From contig NW_024704745.1 of assembly GCF_018977255.1 (NCBI RefSeq), forward strand, positions 49,662,001 through 49,726,000: a DNA stretch of 64,000 nt, written 5' to 3'. This document shows, one piece after another, positions 25,388 to 27,391 of the stretch. The notes under the pieces are model-generated. The model did no database searches and had not been told where the DNA came from. It was given only the letters and a program-made list of their open reading frames with translations. The stretch comes from Callorhinchus milii. Lineage: Eukaryota. The first letter of the stretch is position 1; every line of letters begins with the position of its first letter. The translations under genes were made by a program, and so were the position numbers.

Positions 25388-25477
25388 TCTGGTTGGGGCT
25401 GACTGTCATGTACTCAAGGTAGTGGCAACTATCAGACACGACGTCCCACAATTTGCTGTGGATGATGGTAAACTCCA
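25388..25477 (-). promoter_or_regulatory. Editing-complementary sequence (ECS) for the Q/R site
   Basis: Imperfect inverted repeat of 27201-27305 in two blocks: tctggttggggctgactgtcatgtactcaaggta and tcccacaatttgctgtggatgatggtaaactcca. About 1.87 kb from the edited A, similar to the ~1.9 kb known for mammalian GluR5/GluR6. Confidence 0.88.
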
Positions 25478-26249
25478 ACACGTATGACATGCGTGGCAGA
25501 TATACAAACAGTTTGCTAGCCACTATCATTAAAAAGTAAAAGTAGCTTTCATCAGCATTCATACACATGCATCCACCACAAACATACAAATGCTGTACTG
25601 TAAAACCTGATCATGCACCTGATCAATTCAATTTGAACAGATCAAAAAGTGCCTAAAACTATGACCCACTCTTTAACCCAGTGAGATTTAGCCAGCTTGT
25701 AGCTTGTTCACTGTTCAATGGGGTGCAGGGTATACTTAGTTTAATCATCCACTGCAAATTCATTCTAATACCAAGAAAGCAATGTAGCAGTATTAGAATC
25801 AGGATTAACCTGTTATCATGTTGCTGTCAATTTTCAGAAACGATTGAGATTCCACTAAAATACACAGAATAGTGTTGGGCTTACTACTTATGTATGTATA
25901 TTTTTGCTGCAACACTACAAATATCCCACTGATATAAAGAACAACGCTTTTACTTCTTTGAAGATTTGTGCATCTGTGTTGATTGATAAATTAATTTGCA
26001 TTTTTTGGTTGTGCTGCAAAGTGCATCTGTATGTTATTGAAGGACTGGTTGTTTATTTCTGGTTGGTCATGCTCTGTGATTGATTTGGAGTTCGGTTTTT
26101 AATTTACGTTTACTCTCTTACCAATATTTCCATCAAATTTTCCTTCCCCCTGTCCTTTCTGGTAGCCTCCTGCTTGCATTTACTCAGATGCAGTGCTGCA
26201 GCACTCCTTGTCTTATTGTTCATTGTTCATTGTGTACCTCAATAGCCAA

Positions 26250-26410
26250 AAGGAGTGGAAAACCCTCATTGATTTTCCCTTTTCTTTAATATAGGACCCT
26301 CATGGTAGTATCACTAGTGTTGGCTCAGCTAACACATCACAGATCAGGGATCAAACCTCAGACCTTCTCGGTGTGTGTCTCTCAGATCTCTCATTGAATA
26401 ATCTTGCCTA
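26250..26410 (-). mobile_element. AmnSINE2/Nin-SINE-like 5' relic
   Basis: Minus strand gaaggtctgaggtttgatccctgatctgtgatgtgttagctga resembles 38430-38480 and the recalled AmnSINE2 head. Confidence 0.45.
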
Positions 26411-27272
26411 TCAGGAGTTTTCTAAATTTATTCATATTGTTACACTTGAAATAAATAACCATAGGGAGAGAGAGAGAAAATACATGCACTTTCTATCCAT
26501 TGTCATTTAACTTCATATAAGCAGTTTGCACACCTTCTTTCAGATTAAGAGAAATTACTTAGCGCATGCATTAATTGTAACATTTTAATTGGCATTTTTC
26601 AGCCGAATGATACATGAAATGCAAGTGAAACTAAGATGAAACTCCAGTTATTTTCCTGCAGCTCATGTAAGTGTACAAAATTACAAAAGTTGTTACTTGC
26701 TACATTCTTTCCTATTTCACACAATGAACCCAACATTTACTCAATTGTATTCCTAATATGGTGTTCTTTCTTCCATTTAAGCGAAAATGGAAGTTTTTCT
26801 CGTGTATGATTTTTGCTCCCATTTCAGGCCTGTCAAGTTAGCCTAAATATGCAGGTTAGGCACAGCACACACCTCACCTCATTCACAGCAGAATTTAATT
26901 GCATGAATACACAACTTATACATCAGACGTTAATAGTGCTTAAACAAATCTCTGTACCGGTTGGAGTTAGTTTCATACAAGGCTTTACTTAGAATAAGCT
27001 TCATTTTTTTCATTATAATAATAACTGCCTTCTGCACCATGCATTTTCATTTCATTTCATAATAAAATCAGAATTTCATTGTTTTATTTTTAAGTTTGAT
27101 ATTTTTTGTACCATCAAACAAGCCTCAGAGAGGATTACTAATGATTAGTCTTTTTGAATGTCAACCAGGTTTTACAGTATTGGAGCATAGTTGCTGAGGA
27201 TGGAGTTTACCAAGCACGAGGGACCCCAGCAGACTGTGGGATGTGTGTAGGAATGACGTGTGACCTATGTAC

Positions 27273-27391
27273 CTTGCTGCATGAGAGCTCCAACTCCAAA
27301 CCAGAAACTATTTAGTAAAGTAAAATTGTTTTCCACCACATCGGAGTCAGGATTGCAAGGGTGGGGGTTATACCATTCATAGGGTGTAAAC
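27273..27391 (-). CDS. GRIK1: GluK1 exon, M2 pore loop with Q/R site (FTPYEW...GALMQQG); CAG codon 27277-27279, editable A at 27278
   Basis: Within ORF 27265..27468; CAG/GTACAT; 119 nt, phase 2/1. Confidence 0.97.

Follow-up and report, generated by a model that had tools for sequence, protein, structure and literature searches.

A predicted long-range RNA duplex at the GRIK1 Q/R exon of the chimaera Callorhinchus milii, with homologous arms in GRIK2

The GRIK1 Q/R exon and its predicted partners

The window, a stretch of 64,000 nucleotides of Callorhinchus milii genomic DNA, carries on its minus strand GRIK1, the chimaera's gene for the kainate receptor GluK1 (GluR5). The peptide of the M2 exon agrees with the GluK1 chains in PDB at 38 of 38 residues and with GluK2 at 37 of 38, while that of the downstream exon has, among the 120 matches listed, full (100%) identity with one Callorhinchus milii record only, and the protein cluster of that record contains a member named GluK1. 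Ten further stretches of the matching C. milii protein map along the same strand of the window. The plus-strand base at 27278 is T, i.e. A on the transcript, and the codon at the Q/R position of this GRIK1/GRIK2-type M2 exon is CAG in the genome. Elsewhere in the gene, at 22790-22800, the ligand-binding S2 segment starts with VGDG, which is also found in several shark GluK2 sequences, most of the GluK1 matches listed having VRDG. Strong positive GC skew (0.2-0.4) was seen in intronic sequence at 4001-6000, 12001-16000, 52001-54000 and 60001-64000, probably owing to simple or interspersed repeats.

Two paralogous exons lie elsewhere in the C. milii genome, one of GRIK2 (L004) and one of GRIK3 (L005), and a pattern scan of metagenome contigs yielded three host-derived loci (L006, L007 and L008). 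L006 is GRIK1 and L008 is GRIK2 of another vertebrate, both Q-coding and both with a homologous duplex. The duplex was compared across four loci from two species (the window, L004, L006 and L008), with GRIK3 as the control; the latter (L005:403-522), with CAA at the Q/R codon, 8 differences in the 42 paired exon nucleotides and no homologous arm, is a natural negative control.

Cofolding of the arms on the minus strand gave an interrupted Q/R stem of 21 bp between 27280-27305 and 25388-25410, followed by the CAG codon (27279-27277), unpaired opposite AGUA (25414-25411) in a 3x4 internal loop, and by a donor helix of 7 bp that joins 27270-27276 to 25415-25421 across CAAG|GUA (Table 1). Beyond it, the downstream stem pairs 27223-27241 with 25444-25463, and a perfect 12-bp block joins 27201-27212 to 25466-25477. 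The initial annotation had named these pairings of both arms, including the loop, the donor helix and the 12-bp block, and cofolding returned every one of them at the same coordinates; the long-range pairs also come up when all 2 kb are folded together to minimum energy. The span of 25388 to 27305 that the annotation gave for the full structure, on the other hand, proved too short, as two further nested helices exist, here called the acceptor and inner helices. Rfam covariance models gave no match at E up to 1 over positions 25200-27500.

Table 1. Features of the predicted Q/R duplex and its host exon and intron (window coordinates)
Feature	Position	Strand	Basis
GRIK1 exon encoding pore loop M2 and the Q/R site	27273..27391	-	peptide identity; exon chain mapped with P0009
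Intron holding all distal arms, 4,290 nt	22983..27272	-	next exon starts at 22982
CAG (Q) codon; predicted editing site A27278, CAG to CIG (read as R)	27277..27279	-	cofolding: 3x4 internal loop
Editing-complementary sequence (ECS), partner of 27270-27305: 21-bp stem, AGUA loop strand, 7-bp donor helix	25388..25421	-	cofolding
ECS loop adenosine, predicted second editing site	25411	-	inferred homology to the highly edited intronic A of human/mouse GRIK2, hand-mapped via L008
5' splice site CAAG|GUA, 5' arm of 7-bp donor helix (partner 25415-25421)	27270..27276	-	cofolding; invariant in 4/4 loci
Downstream stem, proximal intron arm, editing-inducer-like, includes 12-bp block 27201-27212	27201..27241	-	cofolding
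Downstream stem, distal arm	25444..25477	-	cofolding; 12-bp block identical in L006
Inner helix, 5' arm, 18 bp	27162..27179	-	folding; 14-bp version kept in L006
Inner helix, 3' arm	25596..25613	-	folding
Acceptor helix (16 bp), 5' arm, over the exon's 3' splice site with its AG at 27393-27392	27388..27403	-	folding
Acceptor helix partner, 14 Watson-Crick and 2 G.U pairs, 85 nt past the ECS core	25312..25327	-	homologues follow the ECS in L004, L006 and L008

In the manner of an editing inducer, a stable and conserved stem adjoins the predicted edited stem, with an internal loop between the two. The core of its proximal arm, UCCCAC...UGCUGGGG, is common to the window and the mouse GluK2 DSS inducer (PMC5654063 Fig. 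S4); the mouse downstream stem of that figure recurs near letter-for-letter in C. milii GRIK2 and with its core only in the window.

With the donor helix over one and the acceptor helix over the other, the exon's two splice sites are predicted to be buried. None of 150 mononucleotide shuffles gave the acceptor arm at least 12 Watson-Crick pairs, and the best helix of this arm lies 76-179 nt past the ECS core in all four loci. Its length is 18 bp in L008, 12 in L006 and 10 before a bulge in L004, and it appears in the minimum-energy fold of the window and L008 only, being absent from the folds of L004 and L006. In L006, some 100 nt of an AAAG-type repeat separate the ECS from the acceptor partner as an insertion, and the partner is still kept.

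Strength and conservation of the duplex

With a 108-nt arm, the ECS region was the best of 439 windows at -85.6 kcal/mol (runner-up -67.8), a value that none of 14 dinucleotide shuffles of the 2 kb intron reached (mean -59.3, best -72.1). Similarly, in L004, L006 and L008 the duplex is the best site of its locus, and 0/14 shuffles matched it in each of the four loci, window included; for the GRIK3 control, two of 14 shuffles reached its score. The best GRIK3 duplex of a 9-kb scan (-78.4, at +4920) was dropped, as it lies beyond the next exon of that gene at +2954. The window contains three helices of at least 12 Watson-Crick pairs, and none of 300 shuffles yielded three. The long-helix count is not significant in L004, which has no helix of at least 12 pairs, nor in L008 (9 of 100 shuffles), whose acceptor partner falls outside the scanned range. 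The exon had been proposed to be the GRIK1 Q/R exon with an ECS, and this identification holds on peptide identity, on the genomic CAG and on above-chance complementarity between the sequence round the site and an element in the downstream intron.

The arms are homologous to those of the orthologues and conserved against neutral intron. Between the window and L006, blastn aligned three blocks only, namely -179 to +112, which is the exon and its flanks, 108 nt at the ECS with 91.7% identity, and +1917 to +1980, which includes the acceptor partner; the spacer is unalignable. The C. milii GRIK2 locus has the same fold and a homologous ECS. Arm identity is 93.6% over 78 nt between L004 and L008 and 79.7% over 79 nt between the window and L004, so that the arms cluster by gene, not by species, and the 12-bp block and the inner helix are specific to GRIK1 in both species. 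In GRIK3, blastn found no alignable arm, only the exon being common with GRIK1 and GRIK2.

The Q/R stem and the donor helix together have 28 pairs, none of which is lost in any of the four loci, with 0-2 per locus as G.U. These core pairs contain no two-sided change, and the covariation term of the alignment fold, +0.44 for the four sequences compared, lends the pairing no support; two-sided changes in the GRIK2 rows (1 and 7) were discounted, as they lie outside the core and mostly in poorly aligned columns. Since the core pairs are invariant, it is thermodynamics and homology that speak for their exact register. The 42 paired exon nucleotides show no difference in any of five pairwise comparisons among the four loci, against 8 differences from GRIK3 and 3 from L007. 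Synonymous differences between GRIK1 and GRIK2 number 0 in the 14 paired codons, 5 in the 25 other codons of this exon and 34 in the 65 of the next one. The 5' part of the exon (27300-27391), outside the long-range stems, is thus also poor in synonymous change, and local hairpins were seen at -86/-55 in the folds of the window and L006.

Homologous arms occur in chimaera GRIK1 and GRIK2, in both genes of the other vertebrate and in mouse GluK2, from which we infer that the Q/R rod is at least as old as the jawed vertebrates (the shark/bony-fish split); it probably also predates the GRIK1/GRIK2 duplication. Of the earlier proposal that structure and spacing are both ancestral, the structural half is borne out by these arms. 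The spacing is not: the ECS core lies 1866 nt away from the Q/R A in the window, 760 in L004, 1391 in L006 and 2054 in L008, a range of 0.76-2.05 kb with an unalignable spacer. The 0.76-kb ECS distance of L004 (8470-9400; Q/R A at G000:C3:39739266) is the shortest of six compared. The oft-quoted distance of 1.9 kb is thus no constraint.

Coordinates in PMC4053846 Table S1 place the distal edited A of the GRIK2 intron at +2054 in human and at +1869 in mouse. By hand mapping, the human adenosines at +41, +2027 and +2054 correspond to those of L008 at +41, +2028 and +2055, and the distal edited GRIK2 site would accordingly be the loop A, 25411 in the window; where human has the edited A at +2027, the window has a C. 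The bulged A at 27295 (-17) is another predicted editing site. We regard the nearness of 1867 in chimaera GRIK1 to 1869 in mouse Grik2 as a coincidence, since different paralogs with unalignable spacers are being compared.

Editing, splicing and alternative explanations

It is highly probable, in our judgement, that the GRIK1 Q/R exon and the conserved intron arms form the predicted long-range rod, one likely to enable ADAR editing of A27278. The stable intron-intron stems (the downstream stem, the 12-bp block and the inner helix) would close a 1.5-kb loop and recruit ADAR, and A27278 would be presented by the Q/R stem, which is weaker and contains the 3x4 loop. ADAR, probably ADAR2, would then turn A27278 into inosine and thereby change the pore glutamine to arginine. 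Such editing would take place before intron removal, and must do so because the ECS lies inside the intron. The resulting R form of the channel would have a lower calcium permeability, an effect reported for R at the Q/R site (PMC9479739). In mouse GluK2, the ECS lies 1885 nt downstream and is accompanied by two flanking stems whose loss lowers editing, disruption of the downstream stem leaving 5% editing in HeLa cells where there had been 23% (PMC5654063).

As to the machinery, the C. milii genome contains an ADAR2-like exon (L009) and a more distant ADAR-like exon (L010), and 200,171 hyper-edited sites have been reported from elephant shark brain (PMC5625713). A run search listed 12 sequencing runs, none of them on record as RNA, and four presumed RNA runs contained 5-10% of the words searched, which weighs neither for nor against editing. 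The C. milii GluK1 protein records all read Q (11 of 11), as genome-derived models would. Among 168 proteins, 119 have MQQGSE and three MRQGSE; the latter were rejected as a proxy for editing in the chimaera, being the teleost record P0005 and two Logan fragments, in neither of which the next exon has the residue typical of the chimaera. The GRIK2 Q/R site of zebrafish is 86% edited, and editing of GRIK1 is low in some mammalian sets (1/8 in rat, 13% of 68 reads in cow; PMC4053846). The level of GRIK1 editing in C. milii may likewise be low.

The donor and acceptor helices may, on this model, slow the splicing of the exon and so give editing more time. Faster splicing is accompanied by less GRIK2 editing (PMC6724681), and in human GluK2 intron retention is frequent among edited transcripts, a finding that its authors explain by the longer presence of the ECS (PMC8257547); this favours the view that the speed of splicing sets editing over the view that editing gates splicing. 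We are doubtful of a bolder version of the model, in which the rod would be a splice clamp that predates the GRIK1/GRIK2 duplication. In that version, both splice sites would be buried and the exon would stay unspliced until ADAR acts, the length of the loop would be free, and the clamp would decay where R is encoded in the genome (the teleost grik1 paralog) or where editing is absent (GRIK3). Were it true, the long and short loops of chimaera GRIK1 and GRIK2 would offer a natural test of distance and splice-site burial against editing level.

Several other explanations have to be weighed against the predicted editing substrate. Chance pairing within an AT-rich intron would fit the weakness of the exon arm alone, which at its best of 884 windows has a z of -3.3, the same as the GRIK3 control attains, and it would fit the occurrence of a single helix of at least 14 pairs in 12 of 300 shuffles. 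However, five elements are nested here in colinear order, against the 0/14 and 0/300 counts obtained with shuffles, and the conservation of the arms in three other loci and in mouse already refutes chance, to which we give a negligible probability. Gene conversion in the chimaera lineage would make the likeness of GRIK1 and GRIK2 uninformative on age, and in its favour the two exons are 95% identical in C. milii, as against 42 differences over the 201 nt of the exons that follow. The grouping of the arms by gene, however, disfavours recent conversion, though not conversion older than the shark/bony-fish split, and the GRIK1-specific 12-bp block and inner helix, common to both species, also stand against it; this origin of the likeness is therefore very improbable.

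The possibility that the rod is kept mainly for splicing control of the Q/R exon, and that the Q codon is edited marginally, as a by-product, or not at all, we consider improbable, if somewhat less so. It draws on the donor helix, invariant in 4/4 loci, on the acceptor helix, present in 4/4 loci, and on the purine-rich acceptor of the exon, common to GRIK1 and GRIK2 and not found in GRIK3. On the other hand, the most frozen part of the rod centres on the Q codon, and the mammalian and zebrafish orthologues are edited (PMC4053846). L007 (2887-3033) is also at odds with it. This fish-like grik1 exon has genomic CGG (R) and is closest to the teleost record P0005, with which it shares an altered loop sequence; its acceptor is different and no proximal arm is present in the 182 nt covered, as expected if the rod served editing.

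Relation to known editing substrates

The mammalian GluK2 (GluR6) Q/R substrate with its distant ECS was reportedly described by Herb et al. in 1996, and Kung et al. are said to have traced GluA2 Q/R editing to cartilaginous fishes in 2001. The editing mechanism itself has been known since the 1990s, and chimaera GRIK1 would be an old copy of it; what is added here is the comparison of paralogs, the free spacing, and the acceptor and inner helices. A literature search, with most subscription journals outside its range, found no paper on the GRIK1/GRIK2 ECS in cartilaginous fish. By the arms described here, the Q/R editing structures of kainate receptors are older than the divergence of cartilaginous from bony fishes and probably older than the GRIK1/GRIK2 duplication, and their exact positions, including the acceptor and inner helices, can be used for GRIK1 minigenes or antisense tests.

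The closest known relative is the mammalian GluK2 substrate, which has in common with the window the same exon, invariant paired codons, an ECS in the downstream intron and a three-stem layout (PMC5654063). It differs in that the window holds the GRIK1 paralog, from a cartilaginous fish, with a structure predicted from sequence. The mouse Grik2 fold, in the jumbled machine text of Fig. S5f of that paper, appears to pair the acceptor region too, and the acceptor helix is likely to be part of the mouse 'upstream stem' already drawn. The mammalian GluK1 Q/R site is the direct orthologue of the site in the window, with 38/38 residues in common and 62% editing (PMC5654063 Table 1). Its fold in Fig. 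S5j of that paper seems to cover about 520 nt only, so that a long-range rod and its acceptor and inner helices are not part of the drawing.

GluA2 (GRIA2) resembles the window in its recoding, its intronic ECS, the inclusion of the splice donor in the structure and a variable spacer (PMC3553965). Yet its sequence is different and its fold short-range, the GRIA2 structure being distinct from those of GRIK1 and GRIK2 (PMC9479739). Some teleost GluA2 paralogs hard-wire R (PMC3553965). A genome-encoded R of the L007 type did not turn up in the literature search, and L007 is a kainate parallel to those teleost gria2 genes with a hard-wired R.
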